DNA from: an uncultured Chloroflexia bacterium
GTDB taxonomy: Bacteria > Chloroflexota > Limnocylindria > Limnocylindrales > CSP1-4
Assembly (NCBI GenBank): GCA_963776385.1
Contig: CAVZME010000011.1
Span: forward strand, 465,195 to 529,194
Length of the DNA: 64,000 nucleotides
Direction of reading: 5' to 3'
In this document: piece by piece, positions 3,614 through 47,875 of the stretch
Position numbering within the stretch: the stretch's first letter is position 1
Layout: every line of letters begins with the position of its first letter
Notes under the pieces: model-generated
What the model was told of the DNA's origin: nothing
What the model saw: only the letters and a program-made list of their open reading frames with translations
The model's database searches: none
Position numbers and translations under genes: made by a program

Positions 3614-4543
3614 TCAGGCTCCCGGGCTCGCCTCGGCTGGTGCGCCATCGACGGGAGAGCTCTCGACCGGGGCGCTGTCGACCGGGGCGCTCGCTGCGGG
3701 CGCGCTCTCTGCAGGCGCGCTCTCTGCAGGCGCGCTTGCGGCGGGCGCGCTCGGCGTGACGGGTGTCGGTTCTGCGCTCGGATCGCCGGGCGTGGCGACC
3801 GGCGTCGCGACTGGGGTCGGTGTCGGCGCCGGAGCCGTCTGCTGACGCCACAGGTACTCGCGGAGGGTCAGGCCGCTCGCCCGGACCTTGGCAGCCACGG
3901 CCCGTCCGAGATACCGGTAGTGCCATGGCTCGTACGCGTAGCAGGTGAGGGTCGACTTGCCCTTGGGATAGGACATGATGAAGCCGTATTTCCAGGCGTT
4001 GGCCTTGAGCCACGCCCCGGCCTTCGTCTTGCCCCAGTCCGCGTAGTACCACGGCGCCGAGCCACCATAGCTCCGGAAGTCGATGGTGGTCCCCAGCTGG
4101 TGCTCGCTGTGCCCCGCCCTGGCGCTCGATTTCAGCGCGGTGGCGTAGCCCGAGACGCGCGCCCAGTAGGCGAAGGTCGATCTCTGGGTGGCGTAGCTTC
4201 GGTAGGCCGACTGGACGGCGAGCCGAGCGCCTGCCCGTCGGGCGGCCGATGCCATCGCCCGCAGGTCCGAGATGACGAGGGCGCGCACGCGGTGACTGCC
4301 GTTGAGCCCGGCGTTGGACGTCGACCGAAGGTCCCCGGGCGCATAGCCGGTCGTGAGCCGATAGCGCGTGTCGAGCACGGTCCTGTTCCAGTCGGTGTAT
4401 CTGCGCTGGGCCGTCGTGACGTCGGCGATCTTGCACGACGGGAGCGACGAGGCGGTCACGACGGTCGCGGCGAGCCCCGTGGCGAGCGCGCACGTCAGCA
4501 ACAGGGCGACAAGGCGGAACCGCTGAGCAGACATCCCGGTCAT
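3614..4543 (-). CDS. D-alanyl-D-alanine carboxypeptidase, peptidase M15B (VanY-like), with Ala/Pro/Ser-rich C-terminal repeat tail
   Basis: Signal peptide. M15 motifs SEHQLGTTIDF and EPWHYRY. C-terminal APAESAPAESAPAASAPVDSAPVES repeats. Confidence 0.8.
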   Translation of the reverse strand: MTGMSAQRFRLVALLLTCALATGLAATVVTASSLPSCKIADVTTAQRRYTDWNRTVLDTRYRLTTGYAPGDLRSTSNAGLNGSHRVRALVISDLRAMASAARRAGARLAVQSAYRSYATQRSTFAYWARVSGYATALKSSARAGHSEHQLGTTIDFRSYGGSAPWYYADWGKTKAGAWLKANAWKYGFIMSYPKGKSTLTCYAYEPWHYRYLGRAVAAKVRASGLTLREYLWRQQTAPAPTPTPVATPVATPGDPSAEPTPVTPSAPAASAPAESAPAESAPAASAPVDSAPVESSPVDGAPAEASPGA

Positions 4544-4587
4544 CTTTGCACCGGTTCCGGTCGCTGCAACCCCACCCGAACGTACCG

Positions 4588-6269: not shown

Positions 6270-6341
6270 TGGCGAGTGGCCAAGCGGTAAGGCGCCTGAC
6301 TCTGGATCAGGAGATCGAAGGTTCGAATCCTTCCTCGCCAG
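6270..6341 (+). tRNA. tRNA-Gln (anticodon CTG)
   Basis: Cloverleaf: acceptor TGGCGAG/CTCGCCA, D-arm GCC-AAGCGGTAA-GGC, anticodon arm CCTGA-CTCTGGA-TCAGG, T-arm GAAGG-TTCGAAT-CCTTC. Discriminator G and encoded CCA. U1:A72 as in bacterial tRNA-Gln. Confidence 0.85.
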
Positions 6342-6924
6342 CCAAACCACAACAGGTGGCGGCCCGGTGGATTTCCGACGCCACATATGGTGGATTCGTG
6401 ACCGGGACGAGCCGGCGTGCGGCTCCAAGAAGGAGGCCACCGCTGCCAGCGAGTTCAGCTGAATGTTCGACTTCTGGACGTTCACCTATCGCCGGGTCGC
6501 CATGTTCGCGTGACTCCGCCTGCTGGCAGCCGTCACCAGCGCTCGAACTGGCGGACCCGCCCCGTTGATCAGGAGGCGGAGCTGCGCGCGCACAGGGCCC
6601 GGCAGTAACACTCACGGCGCGCGGACTACTAGCCCGGCAGCTCGGCCAAATGCGGCCATGAACCGTCGTAGCCCGACGGGCTACGCCCCGAACCCTGACC
6701 TCTTAGTCGGCTGGCCCTTCTCATGGTTCCCTCATATTCAGCCTGCACGCTCGGCGGGCGTCCCGTGGTCGACCCTGGCCCGTGAGGTGAGGATACCGCG
6801 CCATGACCGACTCCGAGATCGGCGCGAAGCTCGATGCGCGATGGCTCCGAACGTCCGCGTGACGGCGGGGCCGGTCGCGGAGAATGGGCGAGTCGAGGCC
6901 AAGGATCCCGCGTCGCAGCTCGAG

Positions 6925-7800
6925 CGGTGACGCTGGCGCGCCTGACCAGCGCGCATCCTCGGTGTGACGTTCGTCTAAACCGGTATCGACAAGCTCACGG
7001 ATCCGAACTTCCGCCAGGCGACGGGCCCGGGCTCGTACGGGTCCCGGCTCGACGGCTTCATCAAGGTCTCGCCGACCGCGACCCTCATCCAGACCCTCGG
7101 CCAGCAGTACCCGGTGGCGGCGGGGCTGCTCATCGCGGTCACCGAGATCGCGATCGGCCTCGGGCGTTGAGTGGCCTGCTCTTCCGGCTGTCCGCCGCCG
7201 GCGGCCTCGCTTTGTCAGTCTTGTTCTGGCTGACGGCATCGTGGGCGACCAAGCCCTACTACTACGGGCCGGACCTGCCCTACGCCCTCGGCTGGTTGAC
7301 CCTCGCCCTCGCCGGAACCGGCGGCCGGTTCACCATCGAAGCATGGCTCGACCGTGAATTCGACGGCGGGTTGGCCGATGAGCCCGTATCGCCCGAGCGA
7401 CGGCTCGTGCTCAAGACGGGATTCCTGGGAGTTGTTGCGCTGGTGGTCGCGGGTCTGGCCGGCACGGTCGGGGCGTCCGCGCTCGGAAGACAGCGGATCG
7501 GCGTCAAGGGCACGAACGGATCGGTCGACACCGGCGATGCCACGGATGGTGCGGTGCCATCGGGGGCTACGCCGTCGTTCGCAGCCGACGCAAGCGCCGC
7601 CCCGACCAGCCCGGGAGCGAGCATCGCGCCCGGATCGACGCCGACGCCGGTCAGCGGCCCGTTGGTCGCCAAGGTCAGCCAGCTGGCATCGGGTCGCCCC
7701 GTCACGTTCAACGACCCGATCACCGGCGACCCGGGCGTGATCATCAAGCTGCGCGACGCAGGTGCGTGGCCGACCCGGGGTGCATGCCACCAGCCTGCGT
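6925..7800 (+). pseudogene. DoxX family membrane protein, disrupted, followed by a Tat-signal-bearing domain of unclear identity
   Basis: DoxX-like segments LGVTFV*TGIDKLTDPNF...GFIKVSPTATLIQTL and LFRLSAAGGLALSVLFWLTASWATKPYYYG lie in three different frames, with an in-frame TAA near 6979. Downstream RRLVLKTGFLGVVALVVAGLAG looks like a twin-arginine signal. Confidence 0.4.
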
Positions 7801-8091
7801 CTGCCCAGTCTTGGTCGATTTCGAACCTCGGGGTGGTTCGGGGTGCGAGCTGGCAGAAAGACACCCGTATCCATCCCCACCAAGCCTCGCACGGCATCCC
7901 TCCGCCACAGATCCGGTCCCGGACTCCCGATCCGAGGCTAAGTGGCCAGCTACTCCGTGCACTCCGCAATCGCTCCCTGCATCCGCGGGCGAATGTCGCT
8001 GGCCCGTCCTCGGTCGCGCGATCGAGGGACGGAGGAGGTGACGTTCCCCGGTTCCGGCCACACGAAGAGCATCGGGCATCATGAGCGATAC

Positions 8092-8947
8092 ATGAACCGC
8101 AACACCCGTCCTGATCCGCGCGTCGTGCTCGCTGACCTGGCCTTCCCCGAGTCGCCCCGCTGGCATGACGGCCGGCTGTGGGTCTCGGACTGGGGGGCGA
8201 ACGAGGTCATCGCCGTCGATCCGGGGGGTCAGAGCCGAGGTCATCGCCCGGGTCGAGTCTTTTCCGATGTGCATCGACCATCTGCCCGATGGGAGGCTGC
8301 TGATCGTCTCGTCGGCGGGTCATCGTCTTCTGCGCCAGGAGTCCGACGGGTCGCTGGTGACCCATGGCGACCTGTCCACCGAAGACGACCACCCCTGGAA
8401 CGACATCGTCGTTGACGGTCGGGGCAACGCCTACGTCAACAACATCGGGTTCGATTTTCCGGGTGGTGAGTTCGCGCCGGGCATCGTCGCGGTCGTGACG
8501 CCCGATGGCATCGTGCGCCGGGTGGCCGACGGCCTGGCGTTCCCCAACGGGATGGCAGTCCAGCCCGACAACGCGACGCTCATCGTCGGGGAGTCCTACG
8601 GCCAGAAGCTGACGGCCTTCGACATCGCCTCCGACGGCAGCTTGTCCGGCCGAAGAACGTGGGCCGAGGTCGACGACCACCCCGACGGTCTCTGCCTCGA
8701 CGCCGAAGGTGCCGTCTGGTACGCGGACGTCGGCAACAAGCGCTGCGTGCGCGTGCGCGAGGGTGGTGAGGTGCTGGACGTGATCGATGTCGACCGCGGC
8801 TGCTTCGCCTGTGTGCTCGGCGGTCCGGATCGCCGAACGCTGTTCGTGGCCGTCAACGAGTGGGCCGGGGCCGAGAGGATGGCCGGGACCCGGAATGGCC
8901 AGGTGCTCGCCGTCGAGGTCCAGGTGCCGGGGATCGGCTGGCCGTAG
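8092..8947 (+). CDS. SMP-30/gluconolactonase/LRE (SGL) family protein, apparent frameshift in a G6 run near 8223-8228
   Basis: N-term MNRNTRPDPRVVLADLAFPESPRWHDGRLWVSDW continues in another frame as ...MCIDHLPDGRLLIVS...GNAYVNN...PNGMAV...CLDAEGAVWYADVGN. The break coincides with ccgggggg. Confidence 0.7.
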
Positions 8948-10415: not shown

Positions 10416-12731
10416 TCAGGTTTCTGCTCCCTCGACCGACGTGACCCAGCGGACGACCTGGACGCGCGAATCGACACCGAGCTTGTTGAAGATGTTCGTC
10501 ACGTGGCTCTCGACGGTTCGCTCCGAGATGAAGAGCTGCGCGGCCGTATCGGCGTTCGTCGCCCCATCGGCCATGAGTCGCGCCACCTCGAGCTCGCGTC
10601 GCGAAAGGCCACCTGGCGCCTTCGCTGCAGTAGCGGGCGCTCGCTTGGGGCGGGCGTCGGACCCCAATGCGTACACGATGACCTCCTCGCGGCTCATCCG
10701 TTGCCCGTCGTCGAACGCCTCGTCATATCTCGCAGCGCCAAGGGCAGCCTTGGCGGACGCCTTCGCGCCCTCCTGGTCGGAGAGCAGAGGCTCGTACTCC
10801 TTGCCGGATGCTGCCCGCCAGATCGCATCGGCTCCACCGAGCAGCGTCGTCGCACGGACGTGATCTCGCCCGGCTCCTGCGGCAAAGGCGAGAACCTCGG
10901 CCATGTGCGCGATCCCGGGCAGGTCACCCAGGTCTCGCCGGATCTCGAGCCCGGAGCGCGCGAGCCGGACCGACTCGTCGAGGTGACCCCCGCGCAGCGC
11001 AGCGATCGACAGGAAGTGCAGCGCATAGGCGCGTACGGCCTTCTCGCCGAGTCGCTCGCTGAGGGCGATCGTCTCCGATCCGGTCGCGATCCCGCCCTCG
11101 AGATCGCCTCCGAAGACTTGCGCGATCCCCTTGACGTCCATCGCCGCCAGCACGACGAAGTCGAGGCCCATCGTCCTGCCGAGCGCCATCGCCTCCTCGG
11201 CCCGAAGGATCGCCTCGTCCTGGCGGCCGCCGACCCAGTTCGCCGCGGCGAGTGCGGTCAGGCCATACGCGACGGGGACGACGTCACCGACGAGCCGGCC
11301 GAGCCTGATGGCTTCGGTCGCTTCTGCGAGCGCACGATCGCCGTCACTCAACGATGACCTGATGATCGACGAGACCCATAGCGCGTCGGCCCGTGGCCGC
11401 GTCTCGCCCGGGATCGCGTCGATGAACGAGCCAAGCGCGCCGAGGAGCCGTGAGAAGTCGCCCTCGGTCAACCAGAACTCGAACAGGTCGCGACAGATCG
11501 CGACCCCGGTCGCAGCCGCGTCCACGTCTTCCAGACAGAGTTCGAGTGCCGCCCACAGGTTGGCCCGCTCGGACCGGAGTCGCGTGAATGCCTCGACTTC
11601 GCGGTGGTCGTGGGCGCCCGCGATCGCGGCGAGGTCCGCGATCCACGCCAGGTGGCGGTGACGAAGGACAGTTTCGGGATCGCCGGTGGCCAGCCGCTCG
11701 CGGCCGAACTGGCGCAGGATCTCGAGGACGCGGAACCTCTCGCGCCCGGATCGCTGCACGCGCTCGACGAGGGATTTCTCGACAAGCGCGCCGACGACGT
11801 CGGGGATCGACGAGGCGGGCAGCTGCGCGTCGGCGCAGACCTCCTGGGCGGCGTCGATCTCGAAACCGCCCGCAAAGACGGACAGGCGCGCGAAGAGCAG
11901 CTGCTCCTCGGGTCCGAGGAGCTGGTAGCTCCAGTCGATCGTCGCTTGCATCGTTCGCTGATGCGGGAAATGGCTCCGGTCCCCGGTGCCCAGGACCTGC
12001 ATCTTCGAGCGCAACCCGTCGCTCAGGGCATCGAGGCCGAGTGAGTCGAGCCGCACTGCGGCGAGCTCGAGCGCCAGCGGCAGACCGTCGAGCTGGCGGC
12101 ACAGCCCGAGGACTGACGGAGCGCTGTTCGCATCGATCGTGAAGCCTCGCCCACGGGCCGCCGCCCGCTCCACGAACAGCGTCACGGCGTCCGACTGCCA
12201 GGCCATCGATGTCGACCGATCGTCAGGTTCGGGCATGGCCAGCGGTCGGACGAGCTCGACGATCTCGCCCGCGATACCGAGGGCCTGGCGACTCGTCGCG
12301 AGGATCTTGAGGTCAGGGCACCGTCGCAACAGCGTCCCGGCGAGCACTGCGACCTCATCGAGGACGTGCTCGCAGTTGTCGAGCACGAGCAGGACACGCT
12401 TGTCGGCCAGGTGATCACCGAGCAAGGTCAGCGTCCATGGCGTGGCGCGGTCCTGAAGCCCGAGCGTCGTTGCGACCGCAGAGGTGACTTCCGCACGGAC
12501 GGCGACCTCGGCCAGCGCGACGAACGATGCGCCGTCTGGGAAATGACCGGAGAGATCCCGCGCGGTCCGCAGCGCCAGGCGCGTCTTGCCGACACCACCT
12601 GGCCCGGTCAGGGTCAGGAGTCGCGCCGTGCCGAGACGTCGCCTGATCGCCCCCAACTCGTCGCGTCGCCCCACGAGGCTCGTGAGCTCCGCGGGCAGGT
12701 CCGAGGCGCGGCGAGAGTCCGGTGACGGCAC
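10416..12731 (-). CDS. LuxR-family transcriptional regulator with N-terminal STAND (NB-ARC/AAA) ATPase and TPR-like region
   Basis: Walker A GPGGVGKTRLAL. LLVLDNCEH. C-terminal LuxR HTH LSRRELEVARLMADGATNADTAAQLFISERTVESHVTNIFNKLGV. Confidence 0.85.
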   Translation of the reverse strand: MPSPDSRRASDLPAELTSLVGRRDELGAIRRRLGTARLLTLTGPGGVGKTRLALRTARDLSGHFPDGASFVALAEVAVRAEVTSAVATTLGLQDRATPWTLTLLGDHLADKRVLLVLDNCEHVLDEVAVLAGTLLRRCPDLKILATSRQALGIAGEIVELVRPLAMPEPDDRSTSMAWQSDAVTLFVERAAARGRGFTIDANSAPSVLGLCRQLDGLPLALELAAVRLDSLGLDALSDGLRSKMQVLGTGDRSHFPHQRTMQATIDWSYQLLGPEEQLLFARLSVFAGGFEIDAAQEVCADAQLPASSIPDVVGALVEKSLVERVQRSGRERFRVLEILRQFGRERLATGDPETVLRHRHLAWIADLAAIAGAHDHREVEAFTRLRSERANLWAALELCLEDVDAAATGVAICRDLFEFWLTEGDFSRLLGALGSFIDAIPGETRPRADALWVSSIIRSSLSDGDRALAEATEAIRLGRLVGDVVPVAYGLTALAAANWVGGRQDEAILRAEEAMALGRTMGLDFVVLAAMDVKGIAQVFGGDLEGGIATGSETIALSERLGEKAVRAYALHFLSIAALRGGHLDESVRLARSGLEIRRDLGDLPGIAHMAEVLAFAAGAGRDHVRATTLLGGADAIWRAASGKEYEPLLSDQEGAKASAKAALGAARYDEAFDDGQRMSREEVIVYALGSDARPKRAPATAAKAPGGLSRRELEVARLMADGATNADTAAQLFISERTVESHVTNIFNKLGVDSRVQVVRWVTSVEGAET

Positions 12732-17187: not shown

Positions 17188-18813
17188 TCAGGCCAGAACC
17201 ATTCCTTCGATGCCTGAGGAGACGGGATCGGGCTGGCGCATCATCCGGAACGAGTTCACGAACCCGATCAGGCTGGCGATGATCGGGATGAGCAGCGCCA
17301 CCTGCAGGGCGAACGCTCGGGCTTCGGTGTTGATGCGGATGATCTCGGCCTGCACATCAGGTGGTTGATCGACCAGCAGCAACGCCAGGTCTGTGTTCGT
17401 CATGACCTCGGCGTCGTGCTCGAGCGTCTCGGACACGATCTGCTGCTGCTCCGGGGTCAGGACTGCGCTCTGCTCGGCCAGATTGGTGAAGCTGAAGGCC
17501 AGCGTCGCGAGCATGATCGCGCCCGCGAACGCCAGGCCGAAGGACAGCCCGAATGAACCGCTGGCCGAGTTCACGCCTGCTGCTTCGCTGACGCGCTCTT
17601 CCTCGATCGGTGCGAGCGTGTAGTTGTTGAGCTGGGAGACGAGCAGGCCGAGGCCGATGCCGGCGATCACCAACGGGGGCGCCATGTACCAGCCCGCATC
17701 GGCACGCGGGATGATCGGGATCAGCAGGAGCATCCCGATCAGGAGCAAGCCGAAGCCCGCCCGGATGATGCTGCTCGGCCGCCGTGCTCCTGACCGCTTG
17801 CCGGCGAGGATCGCCGTCCCGAACATGCTCAGCGAGAGCGGAGCCATGGAGAGGCCCGCCTGCAGGGCGTTGTATTCAAGGACCATCTGGAGATAGATCG
17901 GGATGGTGATCATCGCGCCACCCAGCGCGATGTTCTGGAGCATCTGCCCGGAGATCCCCAAGCGGAAGAGCTTGGAGATGAACAGGTCTGGATCGATCAG
18001 TGTCGGCTTGCCTTCACGCTTCCGACGGACAAGCCAATAGGCGAGCGCCGCAAGCGAGATCGCACCGATCGCGATGAGCAGGCCGACGGCCTCGCCCCCC
18101 TCCTGCCAGGCGAGGATTCCCAGCACCAGCCCGCCCATGCCGAAGACCGAAAGGACGGAACCGACAAGGTCGATATGGCGGGGGCCGGTGTATGGCACGT
18201 CGCGAACGAGCCGGCTGCCGATGAGGACGACCACGATGACGACGACCTCGAGCGCGAACGCGACGCGATAGGACAAGAAGGTCGTGATGAAACCACCGAT
18301 CAGCGGTCCGACGGCTGCCGCGATCGCCGCCGCCGCGCCGACCAGGGCGTATGTCGCCTTCTGCGCCTTGCCTTCGAAGTTGCCGTGGATGAGTGACTGC
18401 ATCGCCGGCAGCAGGAGGGATGCCCCGAGCCCACCGATGATGGCCCAGAAGATGATGATCGCGGTGACGCTCTGGGCCACGGCCATCGCCGAGGCCCCGA
18501 TCGCATAGGCGAGCAGGCCGAGCACGTAGGCTCGCTTGCGCCCGTACAGGTCGCCGATCTTGCTTCCGATCAGGATGAACGCGGCCGACACCAGCGCCTC
18601 GATCGCGATCGCGGATTGAACGGCGCTCACGGTGGTGCCAAGGTCGGCGACGACCGCCGAGATCGACACGTTCATGATCGACGTGTCGACGACGAGAACG
18701 AACATCGCCATCGCGAGCAGGATGGGAAGCCGGCGATCGGCTGCTCCGTGCTCGGCTGGGGCCGAGACCGCTGCTTCGCTCACGATGGGTTCGTCATCTG
18801 CACGGCTCCTCAT
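17188..18813 (-). CDS. MFS transporter, DHA2 (14-TMS drug:H+ antiporter) family
   Basis: 14 hydrophobic segments. GSKIGDLYGRKR motif. The first 290 aa of the listed ORF are R-rich GC artefact, so the start was set at MRSRADDE. Confidence 0.8.
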   Translation of the reverse strand: MRSRADDEPIVSEAAVSAPAEHGAADRRLPILLAMAMFVLVVDTSIMNVSISAVVADLGTTVSAVQSAIAIEALVSAAFILIGSKIGDLYGRKRAYVLGLLAYAIGASAMAVAQSVTAIIIFWAIIGGLGASLLLPAMQSLIHGNFEGKAQKATYALVGAAAAIAAAVGPLIGGFITTFLSYRVAFALEVVVIVVVLIGSRLVRDVPYTGPRHIDLVGSVLSVFGMGGLVLGILAWQEGGEAVGLLIAIGAISLAALAYWLVRRKREGKPTLIDPDLFISKLFRLGISGQMLQNIALGGAMITIPIYLQMVLEYNALQAGLSMAPLSLSMFGTAILAGKRSGARRPSSIIRAGFGLLLIGMLLLIPIIPRADAGWYMAPPLVIAGIGLGLLVSQLNNYTLAPIEEERVSEAAGVNSASGSFGLSFGLAFAGAIMLATLAFSFTNLAEQSAVLTPEQQQIVSETLEHDAEVMTNTDLALLLVDQPPDVQAEIIRINTEARAFALQVALLIPIIASLIGFVNSFRMMRQPDPVSSGIEGMVLA

Positions 18814-19004
18814 CGAACGCTTGTCGCGCAAGAGTAGGTCGGCGTGTCGTCGCCCGTACGGCGCCGTTGCGTCGCGCCCATCCCTCGATGTCGCGTTCGC
18901 CAGGGATGGGCGATCCGCCGTCGCAAACGTACCCGGCGCACGGTCCGGGTCCGACGACGACCGAAACCGTCGGCAGAGGGCGTCGGCCCGCCGGGATCTC
19001 CAGT

Positions 19005-20093
19005 TCAGCCGAAGGTGAAGCAGTACGCCTCGGCCCCTGCGTCGAGGAACTCGATCGCGAAGAGACGCTCCCGCACCTGGCCCGGCTCGCGGATCAGCTG
19101 GTAGAGACGCTGCTCTGCCAGCGTGCCGTTGCCTTCCTCGTCGACATCGAACCCGTGGGCGCTGCCGGGCGCGGCCCCGTCGATGGTCACGCGGAACGGC
19201 GCGGGCTTCCCTCGCAACGACGGCCCCATCACCAGATTGACGTCGCGTGCCTGGTACCTGAATGCGATGCGTCCGCCAGGCTCGTCCAGGACCGCCGCGT
19301 GCGACGCAAGCGTCCATGTGCCGGACGGCGCCCATTGGTTGAGGCCGAGTCGCGGCGACTCCGGATAGTGGTGGGGTTCGTCGAACCGCGCCTGCTCGAA
19401 CGATGCGAAGCCGGCACTCCGGCCGTAGGCGAGATACGTCTCGGGTGTTCGCAGGGTCTGCCAATCGGCGGCAACCTCGAAGCCGTGCGGGTCGACTGAC
19501 ACGAGTTCGGGATCGACCCCGTCCGCCCCCGCCTCGAGCAGCAGCTGCTGGACGACCATCTCGGTCATCGCGTACTCGCCCTCGCCGAAGTGGTGGTATC
19601 GGATCCGGCCTTCGGCATCGGCGATGTAGACCGCCGGCCAGAAGTGGTTCGCGAAGGCCTGCCACACGCCGTACTCACTGTCTACCGCGACCGGATACTC
19701 GACGCCGAACTGTCGCGATCGCGTGATGACGTTGTCGAGGTCGTGTTCGAAGCCGAATTCGGGAGTATGAACGCCGATCACCGTCAGCCCGAGGTCGCGG
19801 TACTTGGCATCCCAGGCGCGAACGTACGGCAGGGTCCGCAGCCAGTTGATGCAGGTGTAGGTCCAGAAATCGACGAGAACGACGCGTCCGCGCAGTCCCT
19901 CGGGCGTCAGCGGCTCCGTGTCGAGCCATCCGGTTGCGCCGTCGAACGACGGCAGGTGGCCCTCGATCGGCAGCTCGGCCGGGTCACCGGCCAGGCGGTG
20001 TGCGATCGAGCGGACCAGCGTCTGGCGTGGGGACGCAGTGGGCATGGTCGCGGTGGCGCCGGGGCGATCGGCGGTCATCCGGTCGTCGGACAT
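19005..20093 (-). CDS. thioredoxin-fold redoxin family protein with C-terminal extension
   Basis: VVLVDFWTYTCINWLRTLPYV (thioredoxin-like CxxC-variant active-site region). GVHTPEFGFE. Confidence 0.55.
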   Translation of the reverse strand: MSDDRMTADRPGATATMPTASPRQTLVRSIAHRLAGDPAELPIEGHLPSFDGATGWLDTEPLTPEGLRGRVVLVDFWTYTCINWLRTLPYVRAWDAKYRDLGLTVIGVHTPEFGFEHDLDNVITRSRQFGVEYPVAVDSEYGVWQAFANHFWPAVYIADAEGRIRYHHFGEGEYAMTEMVVQQLLLEAGADGVDPELVSVDPHGFEVAADWQTLRTPETYLAYGRSAGFASFEQARFDEPHHYPESPRLGLNQWAPSGTWTLASHAAVLDEPGGRIAFRYQARDVNLVMGPSLRGKPAPFRVTIDGAAPGSAHGFDVDEEGNGTLAEQRLYQLIREPGQVRERLFAIEFLDAGAEAYCFTFG

Positions 20094-20120
20094 CTCAAAA
20101 AGCCCTCCGAGAGTTCGCGA

Positions 20121-21371
20121 TCAGTGACCGTCCCGGAGTGATCGGAACGCGGCACGGAGTTCCGCGGTGAAGATGTCGGGCTCCTGCCATGCGGCGAAAT
20201 GGTTGCCCCGACCGACTTCATTGAAGTAGATGAGGTTTGGGTACGCCTTCTCGCTCCAGCTCCGTGGGGCCTGGTACAGCTCGCGGGGGAAGACACTCAC
20301 CGCCGCAGGGACCGAGGCACCCTTGACGTCGAAGAAGCCGAGCGTGTTCTCCCAGTAGAGCCGACCTGAGGACACGCCGGTGTTGGTCAGCCAGGTCATT
20401 GTGATGTTGTCGAGGACCTCGTCCCGCGTGAGATCGTCAACGGGGTCACCGGCGAACGCCCGTGCGATGTCCTCGAGGCTGTACGCGTCGTGATCGAGCA
20501 TCCAGGCGGCAAGGGCGACCGGTGAGTCGGCGAGCCCGTACAACGTCTGCGGGCGATTCCCCATCTCGAGCGCGTACCCGACGCCCTTCGTGAAGAGGAA
20601 GCTCAATCGGTCGTAGGCGCGTTGTTCGTCGGCCGACAGACCGGACGGCGCGGGGTCGCCGGTCCCGAATACATTCGAGGTGAGCGCCTTCGAGACATCG
20701 GGTGGAACGGTTCCCGGCATGTTCGAGTGGATGCCGAGCAACTCCGGCGGTGCCTTCGTGCCGATGACATCCGTGATCTGAGCACCCCAGTCGCCACCCT
20801 GCGCGACGAAGCGTCGATATCCGAGGCGCCGCATGAGCACGATCCAGGCATCCGCGATGTGGACGGGGTCCCATCCGGTCGCCGTCGGCTTTCCCGAGTA
20901 CCCGTAGCCGGGCATGGACGGGACGACCACGTCGAATGCGTCGGCGGCGTCGCCACCGTGTGCCGTCGGGTCGCTGAGCGGCCCGACCACGTTCAGCATC
21001 TCGATGATCGAACCGGGCCAGCCATGGGTGATGATCAGTGGCAGCGCATTCTCATGCGGCGACCTGACGTGGATGAAGTGGATGTCCAGGCCATCGATCT
21101 CGGTCAGGAACTGCGGGAGCGCGTTCAGCCTGGTCTCGAGCCTTCGGAAGTCATAGTCGTCGGCCCAATAGCGGACGAGTTCCCGCATCGTCGCCAACGG
21201 CACGCCCTGCGACAGATCGGCGACGGTCTCCTTCTCGGGGAAGCGCGTCGCGTGGAGCCGCCGGCGGAGTTCATCGATCTCCGCCTGGGCGACGTCGACC
21301 CGGAATGGCCGGATGTCGGCTCCCTGCATGGATCGCTCGGCGGTCGCCTGATCCGGAGCGTTGGTCGCCAT
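20121..21371 (-). CDS. epoxide hydrolase (microsomal EH-like, alpha/beta hydrolase)
   Basis: EH N-terminal domain ([20 protein letters not shown]), HGWPGS oxyanion motif, GGDWGA nucleophile elbow. Confidence 0.85.
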
Positions 21372-21738: not shown

Positions 21739-23439
21739 GTGAGCACCGAGACGACCACGACCCAGGAGCGGACTGACTTCATCCGCGACATCGTCGCCAC
21801 GGACATGCGGTCCGGCCGGTACGACTCGGTGGTCACGCGCTTCCCGCCCGAGCCGAACGGCTATCTGCACATCGGCCACGCGAAGTCGATCTGCCTCAAC
21901 TTCGGGATCGCCGGCGAGTTCGGCGGCCGCTGCAACCTCCGATTCGACGACACGAACCCGATCAAGGAAGAGCAGGAGTACATCGACGGCATCGAGGCCG
22001 ACGTGCGCTGGCTCGGCTTCGACTGGGGCGCGGACCTGCACTTCGCGTCGGATTACTTCGAGCAGCTATACGACTGGGCGAACCACTTGATCCGGGACCG
22101 CCACGCCTACGTTGACGACCTCTCCGTCGACGAGATCCGCGAGCACCGCGGCACTCTTACGGAACCCGGGCGGGACAGCCCGTGGCGTGACCGGCCGGCC
22201 GAGGAGAGCCTCGGCCTGTTCGAGCGCATGCGCCACGGCGAGTTCCCCGACGGCACCCGTGTCCTGCGTGCCCGGATCGACATGTCATCCCCGAACATCA
22301 ACCTGCGCGACCCCGTCCTCTACCGGATCGTCCATGCCGAGCACCCACGGACCGGCGATGCCTGGTGCATCTATCCGACCTACGACTTCGCGCACGGCCA
22401 GTCCGATGCGATCGAAGGCGTCACCCACTCGATCTGCACGCTCGAGTTCGAGGCTCACCGGCCGCTCTACGACTGGCTCCTCGAGAACCTGCCGGTCCCA
22501 TCCCGTCCGCGACAGTACGAATTCGCCCGGCTCAACCTGACCCACACGGTGCTGCACAAGCGCGTCCTGCGACGTCTCGTCGACGAGGGCCACGTGCGGG
22601 GCTGGGACGACCCGCGGATGCCGACGATCGCCGGCCTGCGCCGGCGCGGCTTTCCGGCCGAGGGCATCCGGGACTTTGCCGCGAACATCGGCGTGTCCAA
22701 GGCTGACAGCGTCGTCGAGATCGGCCAGCTCGAGCACGCGGTCAGGAATGTCCTCAATCGGACGGCTCCCCGCCGCTTCGCGGTCCTCGACCCGCTCAAG
22801 GTCGTGATCGAGAACTACCCCGACGGCCAGGTCGAAGAGATGGAGGCCGTCAACAACCCGGAGGACCCCTCGGCCGGCACGCGGACGGTAGCTTTCAGCC
22901 GAGAGCTGTGGATCGAGCGCGACGACTTCATGGAGGAACCGCCACCCAAGTTCTTCCGGCTCGCCCCGGGCAGGGAGGTCAGGTTGCGGTCGGCGTACTT
23001 CATCACCTGCCAGGAGGTCGTGAAGGACGCGTCGGGCGTCGTCGTCGAGCTCCGCTGCGCCTATGACCCTGCGACACGCGGTGGCGACGCGCCAGATGGT
23101 CGCCGACCCAAGGCGACCCTGCATTGGGTCAGCGCGACGACCGCGGTCCCGGCCGAGGTCCGCCTGTACGACCACCTCTTCTCGGACCCGTACCCCGGTG
23201 CGGACGGCCGGGACCTCTTCGCGGACCTCAACATGGCGTCGGAGACCGTCCTGTCGGGGTGCGCCGTCGAGCCGTCGCTCCATGAGGCGCGCGTCGGCGA
23301 GACCGTCCAGTTCGAGCGGCTGGGCTATTTCAGCCTCGACATCGACTCGACCCCGGAGCACCTCGTCTTCAATCGGGCTGTGACGCTCAAGGACACCTGG
23401 GCCAAGGTCCAGGCGCAGGCCAGGCCAGGTCCGAGGTAG
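21739..23439 (+). CDS. glnS: glutamine--tRNA ligase
   Basis: Class I HIGH motif ([17 protein letters not shown]) and the GlnRS-typical anticodon-binding C-terminus. The tRNA-Gln gene lies 27 bp downstream. Confidence 0.9.
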
Positions 23440-23465
23440 ACTCTCGGTGCCTGCACGGGCATCGC

Positions 23466-23537
23466 TGGCGCGTGGCCTAACGGTATGGCACCTGACTCTG
23501 GATCAGGGGGTTCCAGGTTCGAATCCTGGCGCGCCAG
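23466..23537 (+). tRNA. tRNA-Gln (anticodon CTG), second copy with distinct sequence
   Basis: Acceptor TGGCGCG/CGCGCCA, anticodon arm CCTGA-CTCTGGA-TCAGG, T-arm CCAGG-TTCGAAT-CCTGG, encoded CCA. Confidence 0.85.
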
Positions 23538-23555
23538 CCAACATTTCACGCACGA

Positions 23556-23590
23556 AACAGGCCCTCCGGGCTAGGAGGAGGGCCTGTTGA
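23556..23590 (+). terminator. GC-rich hairpin downstream of tRNA-Gln (AACAGGCCCTCC-gggctag-GGAGGGCCTGTT)
   Basis: Perfect 12-bp stem with a 7-nt loop. No U-tract, as is common in high-GC actinobacteria. Confidence 0.45.
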
Positions 23591-23721
23591 CTCGGGTCTG
23601 TACCCCCGCTCGTAACCCGTCCCCGGGGCGCGGGTCGGCACCATCGCGCCGGGCAATCGACGCATCTACAATCGGGACGTCCAATCCTGTCGGCTGACCC
23701 GACGATGCCACCAGCCAGGGG

Positions 23722-24687
23722 ATGTCCCGGATGCGACTTGCCGCACCGTTCAGCATCGCGCTCGTGCTTGCCGCGTCGCTCGTCGCTGCCTGCAGCGCGG
23801 GATCGTCCGGACCGACGCTGACCGGCGCGGGATCGTCCGGACCGACGCTGACCGGCGCGGGATCGTCCGGACCGACGCTGACTGGCAAGACGTGGGCACT
23901 GACCGCGGTCACCAGCAAGACCCCAGCGTTCCAGGGCGTGGTCCCTGACTACCAGCAGTCGGACTACACGATCACGTTCAACACGGACGGCACGTACTCG
24001 GGCACCGCCGCCTGCAACCAGATCGCCGGGACGTACACGACGAGCGGGAGCACATTGACGATCACTGCCGGCGCATCGACGCTGGCGTTCTGTCCCGGCA
24101 TGGACTTCGACACCGACTTCGGAGTGATCTTCGCCCACTCGCTGACGAACGCGTCGACCTACGCGGTGACGAGCGACACGCTGACGATCACGCTCAGCGA
24201 CGGGGGGACGATGACGTTCGGCCCGCCGCCGGTCGTCCCGTCGAGCGTCCCGTCGAGCGCCCAGTCGAGCTCCGTCGCGTCGGCCGTGCCTGGCGCCAGC
24301 CCGCCCGCCGACCTCGTCGGCAAGGTCTGGAAGCTGACGGCCATGACGTTGCTCACCCCGGCCTTCCAGGGCGTCGTGCCGGCCGCCGAGCAGGCGAACT
24401 ACACGATCGAGTTCCAGGCGGACGGAACGTTCGCCGCGAAGGCCGACTGCAACCAGATCGCCGGCACCTACGAGGTACACCGCGGCGGTGGCGAGCCGGG
24501 TCCACTTGAAGCGGGCGGCGGGGGGATCTCGATCCGGCCCGGACCGTCGACGCTGGCCGCCTGCCCGCCGGGCTCGCTGGGCGATCTCTACGTCGTCGGG
24601 CTCGGCGACCTGTCGAGCGTCGGGTTCGAGGGCGGTCAGCTCACTCTGGGGCTCTTGGACGGCGGGAAGCTCGTCTTCGGCTCGTAG
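23722..24687 (+). CDS. lipoprotein with two tandem META (HslJ-like) domains
   Basis: Signal peptide plus lipobox LVAAC. Triple AGSSGPTLTG repeat. Two repeats of the W.LTA...TPAFQGVVP...YTI.F..DGT..G...CNQIAGTY pattern. Confidence 0.7.
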   Translation: MSRMRLAAPFSIALVLAASLVAACSAGSSGPTLTGAGSSGPTLTGAGSSGPTLTGKTWALTAVTSKTPAFQGVVPDYQQSDYTITFNTDGTYSGTAACNQIAGTYTTSGSTLTITAGASTLAFCPGMDFDTDFGVIFAHSLTNASTYAVTSDTLTITLSDGGTMTFGPPPVVPSSVPSSAQSSSVASAVPGASPPADLVGKVWKLTAMTLLTPAFQGVVPAAEQANYTIEFQADGTFAAKADCNQIAGTYEVHRGGGEPGPLEAGGGGISIRPGPSTLAACPPGSLGDLYVVGLGDLSSVGFEGGQLTLGLLDGGKLVFGS

Positions 24688-25327
24688 ACACCGCCGGCTA
24701 AGGGAGGCGACCCCGTCGCCTTCGCCGCGCGCAGACGCGAGCCCCGATTCGCTAGTCTCGACCGCGGTTCGTGACTCCGAAGGAGGGCTCGGATTTCCAT
24801 GACCGCGCAGCAGCCCGTCCTCAGGGAGCACGGCAATGCCTGCGACATCTTCATCCTCGTTCCGACGGTGTTCTCGCGCGCGAGGGCGAGCTGGAGGGCG
24901 TCGTCCGGCGGTTCCGTTAGTCGCGGACATGGAACGGCCCCCGTCGCCGTCGGCAAGCGGGGGCCGATCGTGGTCGGACGTCAGCCGGGTCTGGGGTTGC
25001 TGTCCACCACGCCGGTGAATGGATTGTTGTGAGGGTCGAATGTGCTTCGTTCACCGGGGTGCTCGGGGCGCTCGGAGACCTCGCATCCGCCTCGATCGCG
25101 TCGTTTTGAAGACCGGAGACGACGTCGCCGATCCCCACCTGCGCCACAGCACTCGCGCGAGTTGCCGGCCCTCATCGGGCGCCGGTCCGCATGCGCCATT
25201 CCGCCTCCGCGCCGGGCGATCAACTCGGCGCGGAGGCGACGGTCGGTGAACGTGTCGTGGTGAGCCGGCGCCCGAGCGAGAGTCAGCCTCGCCCTAGGTC
25301 ACCGGTTTCGCCCCCTGACGGAGCCTC

Positions 25328-25450
25328 CTAGTAGCCCGACGTGCCGCCCTTGCCACACGCCGCGAGGATGACCGGCAGGGCGACCATCAGGAGCCATCCG
25401 ACGCGACGAAGCGAGGATCGGCAGCTCTCAGCCATCGCACGGGCAGTCAT
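25328..25450 (-). CDS. short lipoprotein-signal ORF (40 aa; predicted mature part C-GKGGTSGY), possible remnant
   Basis: MTARAMAESCRSSLRRVGWLLMVALPVILAAC lipobox. Start overlaps the stop of the upstream lipoprotein (ATGA). Confidence 0.25.
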   Translation of the reverse strand: MTARAMAESCRSSLRRVGWLLMVALPVILAACGKGGTSGY

Positions 25451-26004
25451 GGCTTGACCGCCAGCCAGTCGGTGTAGACGCCGTTCGAATCGCCGATCGC
25501 GTGATCGCCAGAGAAGAAGTAGAGCGGCAGTCCGTTGTACGTCACCTGGAGCGAACCGTCGTCCGGCCGGGTGATCGTCCCGATCTTGCCGCTGGCCCCG
25601 CTGCCGGCCGAAGGCGTAGCGCCGGCCGGCACGGTCAACGCGGGCCACGTCGTCAGGCACGACCCCGTGCACGCGCTCTTGCCGCTGTCTGCGGTGTCTT
25701 TCGCGAACGTGTAGACGGTCATCCCGTTCGCACCCGCCACGATGAGCGTGCCCCGGGCGCCGACCTGCGCGGTCGAAACGGTCGGACCTCCGGCGACCGG
25801 TCCGCTCGGAGCTTCGGACGGGGCACTCGCCGAGGGAGCTGGGTGGGTGGCGGCCGGCGCGGATGCGGCGGTCGTCGTCGGCGCCGGGCTCGGGACGGTT
25901 GCGGCGGGGCTCGCAGTGAGCGAGGCCGTCGCAGTGCTGCTGCACGCGGCCGCGAGACCGGCAACGATGACGATGGCAACCGCCATCAGGTTCTTGGAAT
26001 GCAT
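25447..26004 (-). CDS. secreted lipoprotein with Yx(FWY)xxD motif (COG4315-like)
   Basis: Lipobox LAAAC, Ala/Pro/Thr-rich linker, GTLIVAGANGMTVYTFAKDTADSGKSACTGSCLTTWP and LPLYFFSGD motifs. Confidence 0.65.
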   Translation of the reverse strand: MHSKNLMAVAIVIVAGLAAACSSTATASLTASPAATVPSPAPTTTAASAPAATHPAPSASAPSEAPSGPVAGGPTVSTAQVGARGTLIVAGANGMTVYTFAKDTADSGKSACTGSCLTTWPALTVPAGATPSAGSGASGKIGTITRPDDGSLQVTYNGLPLYFFSGDHAIGDSNGVYTDWLAVKP

Positions 26005-26175
26005 TGAGTGACCTCGTTCGGAGCCGTCGCACCGATCGGGGGCAGGCGGTCTGAAAGCTCCTACGCTTACACGGGCTGTTCCGGTTTCCTCGCGGCCGCC
26101 CGAAAGAGCGCAAACGCTGAGCGCAACACCATGAACCCATGGTGCCGCGATGCGGAGCTCCCGTGAGGCGATCGC

Positions 26176-26379
26176 CTAGAGGTCGCCCGGATAGTGGCTC
26201 ACGACCCGCTCGAGCTCGTCGGCCGTCATCGGCCGCCCCGTCCGCCGACGATGCTCCTCTTCGGCTCCTGCGAGCCATTCGATGCGGAGACGAATCCGGA
26301 GGTGCTCACGACGCAACCGCGTCGCTTCGAGGCCCAAGCGCTCCGAATGCGGACGGTGGGTCGCGTCGTCCGTGGCCAT
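26176..26379 (-). CDS. small protein A (67 aa), paralog of the divergent neighbour
   Basis: Shares RLR.E.[LM]AGA[DE]EE.R.RTGRP...DE[LV]ER....YPGD[LV] with ORF 26513..26749 at about 60-65% nucleotide identity. Confidence 0.45.
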   Translation of the reverse strand: MATDDATHRPHSERLGLEATRLRREHLRIRLRIEWLAGAEEEHRRRTGRPMTADELERVVSHYPGDL

Positions 26380-26425
26380 GCCTGCCTCCGCTGCCGCCCC
26401 TGGCGGCTAGGGTTGGAACTGCTCG

Positions 26426-26480
26426 CGAAGCCTCGCCGCCTGTCACCGATCCGAGGGATCAGATCCCGGCGAGGCTTCGG
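26426..26480. promoter_or_regulatory. nested palindrome between the divergent paralogs (candidate operator)
   Basis: Perfect 13-bp inverted repeat CGAAGCCTCGCCG...CGGCGAGGCTTCG with a 29-nt spacer containing a second palindrome GGGATCaGATCCC. Confidence 0.4.
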
Positions 26481-26512
26481 ACTGAAGATGACGTCGGGGG
26501 CTTGCAGTCGCA

Positions 26513-26749
26513 ATGGCCGGCGACGACTTCTGGACGCGCGGGCGCACCACATCAACGCAGAGCGCCCGAATGAAGGTGAAGCGCCCGGAACGCCCCATCG
26601 ATCCGCCGGAGTGGCCGCGGCGGCCGAACGTTCGCCTCCGCGCCGAGCTCATGGCGGGTGCCGACGAGGAGTCGCGCACGCGGACCGGACGACCGATAGC
26701 GCGGGACGAAGTCGAACGGGCGCAGCTGCGCTATCCGGGGGACGTATAG
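26513..26749 (+). CDS. small protein B (59-78 aa), paralog of small protein A
   Basis: Conserved C-terminal block RLRAELMAGADEESRTRTGRPIARDEVERAQLRYPGDV. Alternative start ATG 26569 (MKVKRPE). Confidence 0.45.
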   Translation: MAGDDFWTRGRTTSTQSARMKVKRPERPIDPPEWPRRPNVRLRAELMAGADEESRTRTGRPIARDEVERAQLRYPGDV

Positions 26750-26788
26750 TCCGGTCGCAGACGTTCGACTCAACCCGCAGATCGTCGC

Positions 26789-27744
26789 ATGTGGAGGGAT
26801 CCTATGAAGAACCCGCCGATCCTCATCGCGGTCCTCGGCTTTTTCGCGGCGCTCGCGGGGTTCGGTTTCTTGTTCGTTGGCCTGCGTATCGTCGGCTTCG
26901 ACTGGTTCGGGGTGCTCGGTGACCTCCCGGCCTTCGATCACGTCGGGCTGTGGGGCTGGCTCGCGATCGCCACTGGCATCATCTGGCTGCTCGCCGCTGT
27001 TGGCCTCTGGGCGCTCCAGCCGTGGGCCCGCTGGTTTGTGATGTTCCTGGCGGGCATTGCGTTGTTCGAGGCTACCCTGGCCTTCTTCCGGTTCCCGGGG
27101 ACGGGCGTCGCCTTCTCGATGGCGATCATGCCGGCGCTGATCCTCTGGTACCTGCGGACGAGTGAGGTAAAGACAGCGTTCGGTGAAGGCGAGCAGCCCG
27201 AGCCTGCGGCCACGGCTGCGCCTGTGGCGTTCGCGGCGCCCATCGAACCCGCGACGCCTGCGCCGGTCGCCGCGCCGGTCGTGGTCGCAGCGACGGCCGT
27301 GCCGGAGCCGGTCGAGGTCGCCAGTCGCGGCCCATCAGACCAGGATCGTGGACGTCGAGGGGATCGGCCCTGCGTACGCCGAGAAGCTCGCCGCGGCCGG
27401 CATCGCGACGACCGATGAGCTGCTCGCGGCGGGTGCGAAGCCCTACGACCGTGAGAGGATCGCGGAGGCCACCGGGATCAGCAGCAAGCTGGTCCTCGAG
27501 TGGGTCGACAAGGTCGATCTCATGCGTGTCCCGGGTGTCGGCCCGCAGTACAGCGACTTGCTCGAGGCCGCCGGCGTGGGCTCACCCGCCGAGCTCGCGC
27601 AGCGGAACCCCGCCCACCTCGCGGTCACGCTCCAGGAGGTCGTCGCCGCACGGCCGGGTATCGTCCGCCGGGTTCCGAGCGAGGCCGAGATCGCGGCCTG
27701 GATCGAGCAGGCGGCGCAAGCTCGACATGGTGGTCGAACACTGA
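26789..27744 (+). CDS. membrane protein (4 TM plus Ala/Pro linker) with C-terminal DUF4332 (helix-hairpin-helix) domain, apparent frameshift near 27330
   Basis: TM-rich N-term and A/P linker in one frame. DUF4332-like IVDVEGIGPAYAEKLAAAGIATTDELL...LMRVPGVGPQYSDLLEAAGV in another frame with no plausible separate start. Confidence 0.5.
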
Positions 27745-27853
27745 GCCCTGTCTCGCTGTGTACGAGGCTGTCCTCGGGCGCGGCGAGGATCCTCGCGGGG
27801 TCCGCCCGCCTAAGCCGATACGGCCGCGTTGGGTCGGCATCGCCTCCGTCCCT

Positions 27854-27899
27854 ACTCTGGATCAGGGGGTTCCAGGTTCGAATCCTGGCGCGCCAGCCA
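27854..27899 (+). repeat. direct repeat of the 3' half of tRNA-Gln(23466) (att-like)
   Basis: ACTCTGGATCAGGGGGTTCCAGGTTCGAATCCTGGCGCGCCAGCCA is identical to the 3' 45 nt (plus CCA) of the tRNA 4.3 kb upstream. The tRNA 5' half is absent. Confidence 0.8.
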
Positions 27900-28125
27900 A
27901 TCCCTTCTCTGTCGTGGTTTCGAGCTCGGCGGCCAATTCGGTCTCCGCCGCGGCCTTGACCTGCATGCGGTCGACCACGTTCTCCACCTGGCGCGACAGG
28001 CGTTCGAGCTGGGGGTCGCCCGGCTCGAGTGAGGCCTTCTCTCGTTCGAGGTCGTCGACCCTGGCGGCGTCCTCGCGGATGGAATCACCCGTCGCGCGCA
28101 GATCCTGCGTCGGATCGCTCATCGA
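27862..28125 (-). CDS. small coiled-coil protein (87 aa), C-terminus encoded by the att-like repeat
   Basis: MSDPTQDLRATGDSIREDAARVDDLEREKASLEPGDPQLERLSRQVENVVDRMQVKAAAETE. The last 13 codons run through the tRNA-derived repeat. Confidence 0.35.
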   Translation of the reverse strand, partial: SMSDPTQDLRATGDSIREDAARVDDLEREKASLEPGDPQLERLSRQVENVVDRMQVKAAAETELAAELETTTEKGLAGAPGFEPGTP

Positions 28126-28348
28126 AGGACCCTCCTCGTACGTCGATCCACCGACCCTCTCGGTAGACATACCAGATGAGACGCGGCTCCCCCGACAGCA
28201 GCCGTGCGTGGACTGCGGCCTTCGGGTAGACCGACCGGAGGCGGCGCTCGAGCTCGGTGACCTCATCCACGCCGTCATCGACGAAGCTCGCGGCCAGCGC
28301 CGCGAAGTCCTCGTCGTCGGCAGGGTTGGTGACCAGTGTCGGTCGCAT
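28085..28348 (-). CDS. hypothetical protein (87 aa)
   Basis: ORF only. Acidic N-terminus. Overlaps the downstream small ORF by about 40 nt. Confidence 0.25.
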   Translation of the reverse strand: MRPTLVTNPADDEDFAALAASFVDDGVDEVTELERRLRSVYPKAAVHARLLSGEPRLIWYVYREGRWIDVRGGSFDERSDAGSARDG

Positions 28349-28441
28349 CGGTCCTCCGGCCCGAGTATGCCCGCCCTCCGGACGACGGGAACCTCACCGT
28401 GAGCTGCGGCCATGTCACATCGGTCTTGCAGGTCGTAGGTC

Positions 28442-29067
28442 TCAGGCCGGCCAGTCGATGCACGTCAACCGCCCATCCGGCCGTGATACCGCGACGACGA
28501 AACGCGTGTGACCGAGATAGCGGCGGCGAGCGTCCACGGGTTCGATCCCGTCGAGGATCTCCGGGAGCACGCAGCGATAGAGCGAACCATGCCCGACAAG
28601 CAGCGCCGCCGTTCCCCTCTCGCCATCGGTCGCGACGAGATGAGAAACGAACGGGATGAACCGCTCACGCAGGTCCACGAGGCTCTCTCCCCCGTCGAGA
28701 CGCGCGTCGACCCTACCCTCCTCGAGCCACCGATGTTCGATCGCGTCGTGCGCTCGCCAGGCCTCTTCATCCGAGCGGCCCTCGTAGATCCCACAATCGG
28801 CTTCCCGCAGTGCGTCCGCGACCTCGGGACGGACACCGAGCGCGGTGCCCACGATCGCTGCGGTCTCGACGGCACGCCGGATCGGGCTCGAGATGATCCG
28901 CGCGACGCCCTCAGCCCGGACTGCGTCGGCGAGGATCCCGCCTGCTGTCGTCCGGTCGCCGTCAGCGGATGCGCCGAGTCTCGATTGGCGATGACGTGAT
29001 GAACGTTCGCTTCGCTCTCACCGTGGCGTGCGAACAGCAGCTTCATGGGCGACGATGGTATCGACAT
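28442..29067 (-). CDS. histidine phosphatase (phosphoglycerate mutase) family protein, apparent frameshift near 28950
   Basis: RHGESEAN catalytic motif at the N-term. The remainder (SPIRRAVETAAIVGTALG...LLVGHGSLYRCVL) is in a second frame. Confidence 0.65.
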
Positions 29068-47849: not shown

Positions 47850-47875
47850 ACCCGGGCGTGCTTCGGAGGCAGACG

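Follow-up and report, generated by a model that had tools for sequence, protein, structure and literature searches.

A tRNA-Gln gene and a second copy of its 3' half

We analyzed a 64-kb stretch of DNA from an uncultured Chloroflexia bacterium (64,000 nt of contig CAVZME010000011.1, called the window in the following), in which an intact tRNA-Gln(CTG) gene starts 27 nt behind the stop codon of glnS and in which the 3' half of this tRNA gene is found again 4.3 kb further downstream. The segment between the two copies, which we call the islet, carries genes for a double-META lipoprotein, a second lipoprotein, a divergent pair of small paralogs and a membrane-linker-DUF4332 protein, and it is followed by two genes on the opposite strand, R1 and R2 (Table 1). 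A reading made from the letters of the window (the sequence-only reading) had taken this arrangement for the attL/attR signature of an element integrated into the 3' end of a tRNA gene, and had left it either as a decayed island or as a non-autonomous element mobilized in trans.

A repeat finder and a direct search both showed that the two copies form an exact direct repeat of 47 nt, starting at the last base of the 5' strand of the anticodon stem and ending one base past the CCA, so that the repeat described before stands, with 47 nt in place of 45 and with its right copy ending at 27900 in place of 27899. Dinucleotide-preserving shuffles gave an expectation of 0.00 matches with 3 mismatches allowed, and no third copy of the repeat was found in the 64-kb window. 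A second tRNA-Gln(CTG) gene, called by ARAGORN at 6270-6344, differs from the repeat at 8 of 47 positions. Neither ARAGORN nor Rfam called a tRNA near 27854 and no tRNA 5' half precedes that position, such that the right copy is not part of a second full tRNA gene; a Rfam search of 23300-28500 found no RNA family other than the tRNA-Gln at 23466. The start of the repeat fits the anticodon-centered class of phage attachment sites (attP; PMC4383910), and 15 other half-sites, introduced below, begin within a few nucleotides of the same place.

Since the glnS-tRNA-Gln adjacency is kept in many relatives, the tRNA gene at 23466 stands at its ancestral position. Close relatives of the source genome, an uncultured Limnocylindria-type member of the Chloroflexota, are lacking: the glutaminyl-tRNA synthetase (GlnRS) of the window is at most 84% identical to those of species representatives labelled Limnocylindrales or Chloroflexia. 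The lineage has two types of tRNA-Gln(CTG). In four contigs (L088, L154, L163, L185) a type-2 gene is followed by a type-1 gene within about 40-70 nt, and the two types swap positions relative to glnS in other genomes. We also considered that the tRNA of the window might be a chimera of a type-1 5' half and the type-2 3' half of an element, and rejected this because its 75 nt recur without a change in about 35 metagenome contigs, the empty sites described below among them.

Empty sites, a phage attP and the trailer behind the tRNA

At least 120 loci came out of a scan of metagenome contigs for the 46-nt core of the repeat; 97 of them are intact tRNAs, 15 are half-sites that lack the tRNA 5' half, and 8 are truncated. 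Five of these contigs (L173, L143, L176, L130 and L138) are empty sites, in which a tRNA-Gln identical to that of the window has an R1 homologue directly behind it. L173 and L143 show glnS (82% amino acid identity), the intact tRNA-Gln and then R1, with R2 also present in L173, and the other three show the tRNA-Gln directly followed by R1 and R2, with at most the 3' end of glnS at the contig edge. Compared with the window genes behind the right repeat, amino acid identity over the five contigs is 51-58% for R1 and 65-74% for R2. At the DNA level, L173 aligns with the window in two parts: positions 1201-1316 match window 23428-23543 at 90.5%, and positions 1268-1801 match window 27854-28357 at 70.7% over 536 nt, this second alignment beginning at the first base of the repeat. 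For the window, an empty-site junction would read as the tRNA-Gln sequence followed by ATCCCTTCTCTG... From the glnS-tRNA-R1-R2 order of these relatives and from the breakpoints at the repeat, it follows that the 4.3 kb are an insertion (or, equivalently, a precisely excisable segment) and that the flank to the right of 27900 is native. The empty site that the sequence-only reading had suggested looking for is therefore present in five contigs, and no relative with the same gene content and without the repeat was found. In 27 GTDB relatives, we found almost no synteny with either cargo or flank, and no empty site, over the 10 kb behind glnS, and exact-protein look-ups with five proteins of the window gave no match.

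The R1 gene overlaps the attachment sequence: the right repeat of the window contains its last ~12 codons and its stop, as does the tRNA gene in the empty sites, with the C-terminal codons (LAGAPGFEPGTP, then stop) running antisense to either. This antisense overlap between a protein gene and a tRNA is conserved in the window (27862-28125, minus strand), in L173 (1279-1566) and in L143, L176, L130 and L138, and selection on R1 may help to keep the right repeat exact.

In IMG/VR, the 46-nt core occurs once, on a 39.8-kb contig (IMGVR_UViG_3300032954_000044, our loci L081 and L082; the same contig as Ga0335083_10001011, L097) that has no tRNA around the core. A tyrosine integrase gene (PF00589, 9650-10918) ends about 400 bp from the core at 11317-11362. 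In the span that we read (1-20915), RecT-like and HNH-like open reading frames (ORFs) lie with the integrase on one side of the core, and a helix-turn-helix protein, a terminase-like gene (17295-18620) and a portal-like gene (18617-20608) lie on the other; these phage ORFs were assigned by eye from their translations, and the helix-turn-helix protein was confirmed with Pfam. Because no tRNA surrounds the core, an integrase is close by and phage genes lie on both sides, we regard this core as a true attP. The phage and the islet share the identical 46-nt core, with tRNA identity reaching to about 51 nt, and a similar ACGAA motif with a hairpin-like trailer on the P' side. Unlike the islet, the phage is 39.8 kb long and has an integrase on its P-arm side, a terminase and a portal. 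Comparing the contig with the window by tblastx and tblastn, we found matches in the core and the trailer only and no homologue of a phage gene in the islet. Two metagenome loci have an integrase at the same site: in L121, glnS, tRNA-Gln and the trailer are followed by the C-terminus of an integrase on the opposite strand, and in L106 a half-site with the same trailer lies beside an integrase 40% identical to that of the phage. Considering the phage attP with its identical core next to an integrase, together with these two occupants, the tRNA-Gln half is a real integrase target in this lineage.

The sequence directly behind the tRNA in the window also points to an integrative element. This trailer is homologous to the core-adjacent sequence of the phage attP (L097/L081; 88.6% over 79 nt) and to sequences in L089 (87% over 139 nt), L117, L186, L179, L121 and L106, with homology that reaches about 78 nt past the tRNA, and it is absent from the empty sites. 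Its hairpin has a folding energy of -27.2 kcal/mol (z = -2.7), and when the trailers were folded one by one, 17 of 22 loci showed a GC stem of 9-13 bp in this position, formed by differing sequences. The hairpin was flagged as terminator-like on the minus strand (23579-23562), the ACGAA motif being the complement of the T-tract of that terminator, and it looks like a bidirectional terminator; in L121 and L106 the integrase gene converges on the equivalent hairpin. Judged from these homologies, the window looks as if it had kept the trailer/terminator of an integrative element without the integrase. We rejected the possibility that the ACGAA motif and the hairpin are the native trailer of the tRNA, which would place the native flank on the wrong side, since they are absent in the empty sites and present in the phage attP, with phage genes on both sides, and beside integrases.

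Two further trailers were seen at tRNA-Gln genes. One that begins cttacaccctgatcaaggga... follows intact tRNAs in L093, L120, L084 and L100 and also five half-sites (L111, L145, L184, L195 and L202) that have different downstream genes, and its presence at both kinds of locus implies that the duplicated block is longer than the tRNA part in those elements; this suggests tandem arrays. The other concerns the second tRNA-Gln(CTG) gene of the window, which is followed by ccacaacaggtgg...ccacatatggtgg (window 6270-6420), resembling a second trailer family found behind intact tRNAs in L189, L190, L169, L127 and L017b and behind half-sites in L126 and L175. This tRNA gene could be another tDNA that is scarred or occupied. 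The window contains no repeat of the region, and inspection of the 1.8 kb behind the gene (6345-8100) revealed no integrase.

On the other side of the islet, blastn of the spacer between the DUF4332 gene and the right core found no similarity to any recovered P arm, with no match beyond the core. A GAGCACG-like motif located 12-25 nt from the core in L097, L099, L106 and L179 is missing from this spacer, and the bases just 5' of the right core are CCCT before ACTCTGG in the window and (C)TG in nearly all half-sites.

Cargo genes and signs of decay

Table 1. Features of the islet and of its borders in the window, with strand and basis of assignment
Feature	Position	Strand	Basis and details
tRNA-Gln(CTG), intact	23466..23540	+	ARAGORN; Rfam tRNA 66 bits; probable regenerated integration target
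Putative attL core, left copy of the 47-nt direct repeat	23495..23541	+	repeat finder and direct search
Putative element-derived trailer (P' arm)	23541..23619	.	motif CACGCACGAAAC, then GC-rich hairpin about 23553-23588, T-rich tails on both strands
Double-META lipoprotein	23722..24687	+	Pfam META E = 6.6e-30, two stretches; cassette homology 23631-24760
Degenerate third small-paralog copy	25144..25245	-	blastn to the small gene of L205, 76.6% over 107 nt
Lipoprotein_15 (SCO0930-like) lipoprotein with overlapping 40-aa lipobox ORF	25328..26004	-	lipoprotein 25447-26004; lipobox ORF 25328-25450
Divergent small paralogs	26176..26749	.	26176-26379 (-), 26513-26749 (+)
Membrane-linker-DUF4332 gene	26804..27744	+	Pfam DUF4332 E = 1.6e-34; two +1 insertions
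Spacer on the P-arm side of the right repeat	27745..27853	.	109 nt between DUF4332 stop and right core
Putative attR core, right copy of the repeat, displaced 3' fragment of tRNA-Gln	27854..27900	+	
Native right flank, R1 and R2	27862..28348	-	R1 27862-28125, R2 28085-28348

The islet is built of blocks with sharp edges: the trailer to about 23619, the META cassette (23631-24760), an ORF-poor degenerate stretch, the lipoprotein pair (25328-26004), the divergent paralogs, and a small paralog together with the DUF4332 gene (about 26553-27745). In relatives, the META and DUF4332 cassettes occur as stand-alone copies in unrelated contexts at 87-90% nucleotide identity, with no tRNA or core nearby. 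More distant homologues of the META and Lipoprotein_15 genes adjoin tRNA-Gln in L127 and L128.

The META cassette is 89-90% identical at the nucleotide level to stand-alone copies in unrelated contexts of L206 and L207, and another gene shared with L206 (window 47874-48254) is 75% identical, a comparison that hints at an exchange of cargo cassettes among lineages. Just past its lipobox, the META gene has a near-perfect tandem repeat of three 30-nt units (23795-23886) that codes for GSSGPTLTGA three times. In L207 (8926-17487), a UvrD_C fragment and, on the same strand, the N-terminal part of a UvrD helicase enclose the META cassette together with a guanylate-cyclase gene and a 241-aa ORF, an arrangement that resembles a helicase gene split by an insertion.

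The Lipoprotein_15 gene, which had been read as a COG4315 lipoprotein, is supported by Pfam PF03640 (E = 2.2e-24), with NCBIfam NF040526 below its cutoff, and the 40-aa lipobox sequence overlapping it is present as an ORF only. The two small paralogs are 59% identical over 39 aa, are separated by a region with a perfect 13-nt inverted repeat (26426-26438 and 26467-26479), and have no match in Pfam, PHROGs or NCBIfam. A degenerate third copy sits in the ORF-poor stretch 24761-25327, where inverted repeats pair 25182-25239 with 26632-26688. In L205, a homologue of the small paralogs lies directly upstream of a DUF4332 gene. That contig has two inverted modules of this kind (3668-4882 and 7175-8291) with mirrored fragments of a sulfate transporter and of PPK2 around them, which may be a true inverted duplication or may have arisen as a fold-back artefact of the assembly.

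DNA alignment of the DUF4332 gene with the intact genes of L203 and L204 located its two insertions, a T at 27318 and one base at 27716/27717, neither of them in a homopolymer. Once both frameshifts are repaired, a 310-aa protein is obtained that is 84-86% identical to 310-aa homologues at 100% coverage, and the DNA homology ends at the corrected stop (27744). Going by the alignment, this gene would be a pseudogene unless the insertions are sequencing errors. The cargo described from the letters, namely the META and COG4315/Lipoprotein_15 lipoproteins, the divergent paralogs and the 13-nt palindrome, was thus found as described, with the two reservations that the small lipobox protein is an ORF only and that the DUF4332 gene needs two repairs.

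No recombinase and no phage-specific family were found among the islet ORFs with Pfam, PHROGs and NCBIfam, the only PHROG matches being generic helix-hairpin-helix ones to the DUF4332 domain (phrog_1268, E 6e-06; phrog_27403, E 0.0044). A tblastn search of the 64 kb with four integrases from related sites gave nothing (best E = 0.46), which bears out the earlier claim that no integrase is present, and a six-frame reading of 24688-25330 showed no integrase remnant. Transposases, ends of insertion sequences (IS) and extra core copies were likewise not found inside the islet. Three signs of decay were noted: the two +1 frameshifts of the DUF4332 gene, the degenerate paralog copy and the missing P-arm motif by the right repeat.

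Origin and standing of the islet

Several island classes offer a frame for these observations. The Islander principle, together with sublocation classes and the anticodon-centered attP class, is described in PMC4383910. Like islands of this type, the window has an intact, probably regenerated tRNA and a displaced 3' fragment in direct orientation at the ends on one replicon (both on the plus strand), an identity block in a known sublocation (from the anticodon stem-loop to the 3' end), a tRNA 3' half and trailer that would be supplied by the element, and an interval that is absent in relatives with breakpoints at the repeat, these relatives being other species at ~82% GlnRS identity. Sublocation classes of attachment sites were reportedly set out by Williams in 2002. 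In contrast to Islander-type islands, the islet measures 4.3 kb, has no phage or transfer genes and contains no PF00589 integrase inside the interval, so that the Islander filter would reject it. Structural, replication or lysis genes of a prophage, or remnants of them, were not found either.

Cis-mobilizable elements (CIMEs) have lost their integration and transfer genes and kept attL and attR (PMC5704250). The islet is CIME-like in structure, with att sites and no recombination genes: it is flanked by attL and attR sequences, its attL trailer is homologous to the P' arms of integrase-bearing elements, it lacks integration, excision and transfer genes of its own, and, as for the ICESt1-related CIMEs of Streptococcus thermophilus, its simplest origin would be a deletion from an autonomous element. 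It differs from these in being related to phages or islands rather than shown to derive from an integrative and conjugative element, in having no tandem partner and in a P-arm side that looks degenerate, and its mobilization is hypothetical. Islands at ssrA without an integration module are known from Dehalococcoides, which also belong to the Chloroflexota (PMC3146451). The islet shares with these islands the phylum, bounds formed by a small-RNA gene and a direct repeat, the lack of an integration module and a hypervariable region downstream of the target. The Dehalococcoides islands use a transfer-messenger RNA target, a 20-bp repeat and a serine recombinase (DsiB) and form tandem arrays, whereas the islet has a tRNA-Gln target, a 47-bp repeat and an attP of the tyrosine-integrase type and is single. 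The islet fits known frameworks and reveals no new mechanism.

The explanation that we favor, and that we consider probable, is that segment 23541-27853 was inserted by site-specific recombination of the tyrosine-integrase type and is now a decayed, integrase-less islet. On its attP, the incoming element would have brought a duplicate of the tRNA part between the anticodon stem and the 3' end, from which recombination would have regenerated the tRNA gene. The same event would have brought in the trailer/terminator of the element (23541-23619) and displaced the original 3' part to 27854-27900, beside the native neighbor R1. The integrase would have been lost since; its gene probably lay on the minus strand and pointed towards the retained hairpin, the arrangement seen in L121 and L106. 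What is left would be a patchwork of accessory cassettes typical of the lineage, one of which appears to be a pseudogene with a double frameshift. By the sequence comparisons made here, the integration origin as such is well supported: empty sites, an attP of the cognate type next to an integrase and a homologous trailer all agree with the attL/attR signature first proposed. We infer that a single element brought all of the cargo and that its integrase stood where the trailer hairpin indicates; the islet is probably fixed and immobile by now.

Several observations weigh against this explanation. The cargo is chromosomal in relatives and host-like in composition, with no difference in GC content or in GC content at third codon positions (GC3) between islet and flanks, and may thus not have been brought by the element. 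A junction-specific metagenome scan for an empty or occupied site of the same species gave 0 hits, and the comparison rests on relatives at ~82% GlnRS identity. The integrase search covered 64 kb of the genome. Frameshifts also occur outside the islet and could stem from the assembly, because a histidine-phosphatase gene of the native flank (28442-29067, minus strand) is also split over two frames, one ORF having the N-terminal RHGES motif and the other matching Pfam His_Phos_1 at positions 65-183. Several very long ORFs that are intact elsewhere in the window speak against an assembly prone to errors throughout. At the right repeat, identity remains complete at 47 of 47 positions, which could mean a recent insertion or a retained function.

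Such a retained function is the substance of the alternative that survives best, which we nevertheless consider unlikely, namely that the islet is a functional non-autonomous element with usable attL and attR, moved by the integrase of a co-resident phage or island with the same core target. Both cores are exact, the P' trailer is intact and common to integrase-bearing elements and the phage attP, phages and islands of this specificity exist in the lineage, several other half-sites show no integrase over the 2.5-5 kb that were examined on one side, and CIMEs are documented and have candidates in Dehalococcoides (PMC5704250, PMC3146451). However, the spacer resembles no P arm, lacks the GAGCACG-like motif and ends in CCCT where nearly all half-sites have (C)TG, no second occurrence of the islet was found, the cargo holds the apparent pseudogene, and the exactness of attR may be explained by the coding overlap with R1. 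Of the two options first offered by the sequence-only reading, we favor decay over mobilization in trans because of the pseudogene, the degenerate P-arm side and the failure to find a second copy.

A composite history is a further alternative that we hold to be rather doubtful. The repeat and the trailer would here be the scar of a mostly deleted element, and the cassettes would have come later, whether by accretion, by illegitimate recombination or by homologous exchange, at a tDNA hotspot that is hypervariable. The sharp block edges of the patchwork, the finding that each block stands alone in different contexts in relatives, the identity of the META cassette to L206 and L207 in comparison with the 75% of the other shared gene, and the sequence behind tRNA-Gln, different in almost every contig, would all agree with this. 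Yet insertions between the cores after integration need extra events that were not observed, the islet has no transposase, IS end or extra core copy that would mark them, and integrative elements often carry such mosaics themselves.

Beyond the window, it is conceivable, though we would give it little credence, that the ~80-nt unit of core, ACGAA motif and hairpin is a portable attachment/terminator module of phages, integrase-bearing islands and many integrase-less tRNA-Gln islets in Limnocylindria, and that the islets are hitchhikers moved in trans by phage integrases.

That no integration took place, the right copy having been left by a second tRNA-Gln gene, duplicated locally or produced by an assembly mis-join at shared tRNA sequence, is highly improbable: the lineage does have two tRNA-Gln(CTG) types and some tandem tRNA-Gln arrangements, and the source is probably a metagenome-assembled genome, but the fragment begins at the anticodon stem as in 15 independent half-sites, an element-type trailer, missing from the empty sites, stands behind the left copy, a half-site after non-tRNA sequence cannot come from a simple mis-join, and the empty-site alignment, with R1 and R2 directly behind an intact tRNA in relatives, largely refutes it.

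For annotation, decayed insertion as the favored origin means that it would be wrong to label the half-tRNA at 27854-27900 as a tRNA, or as a pseudogene of unknown origin, and that the 4.3 kb before it would be accessory, laterally acquired DNA of an uncultured soil Chloroflexota lineage, of a kind that integrase-based island finders would miss. The exact attP/attB match ties the 39.8-kb temperate phage to Limnocylindria hosts that carry this tRNA-Gln. The region behind tRNA-Gln differs in almost every contig, often with no integrase nearby, and is hypervariable, making the tRNA-Gln(CTG) gene downstream of glnS an integration hotspot in Limnocylindria; if the hitchhiker model held, such islets would shuffle lipoprotein and membrane-protein cassettes among lineages.

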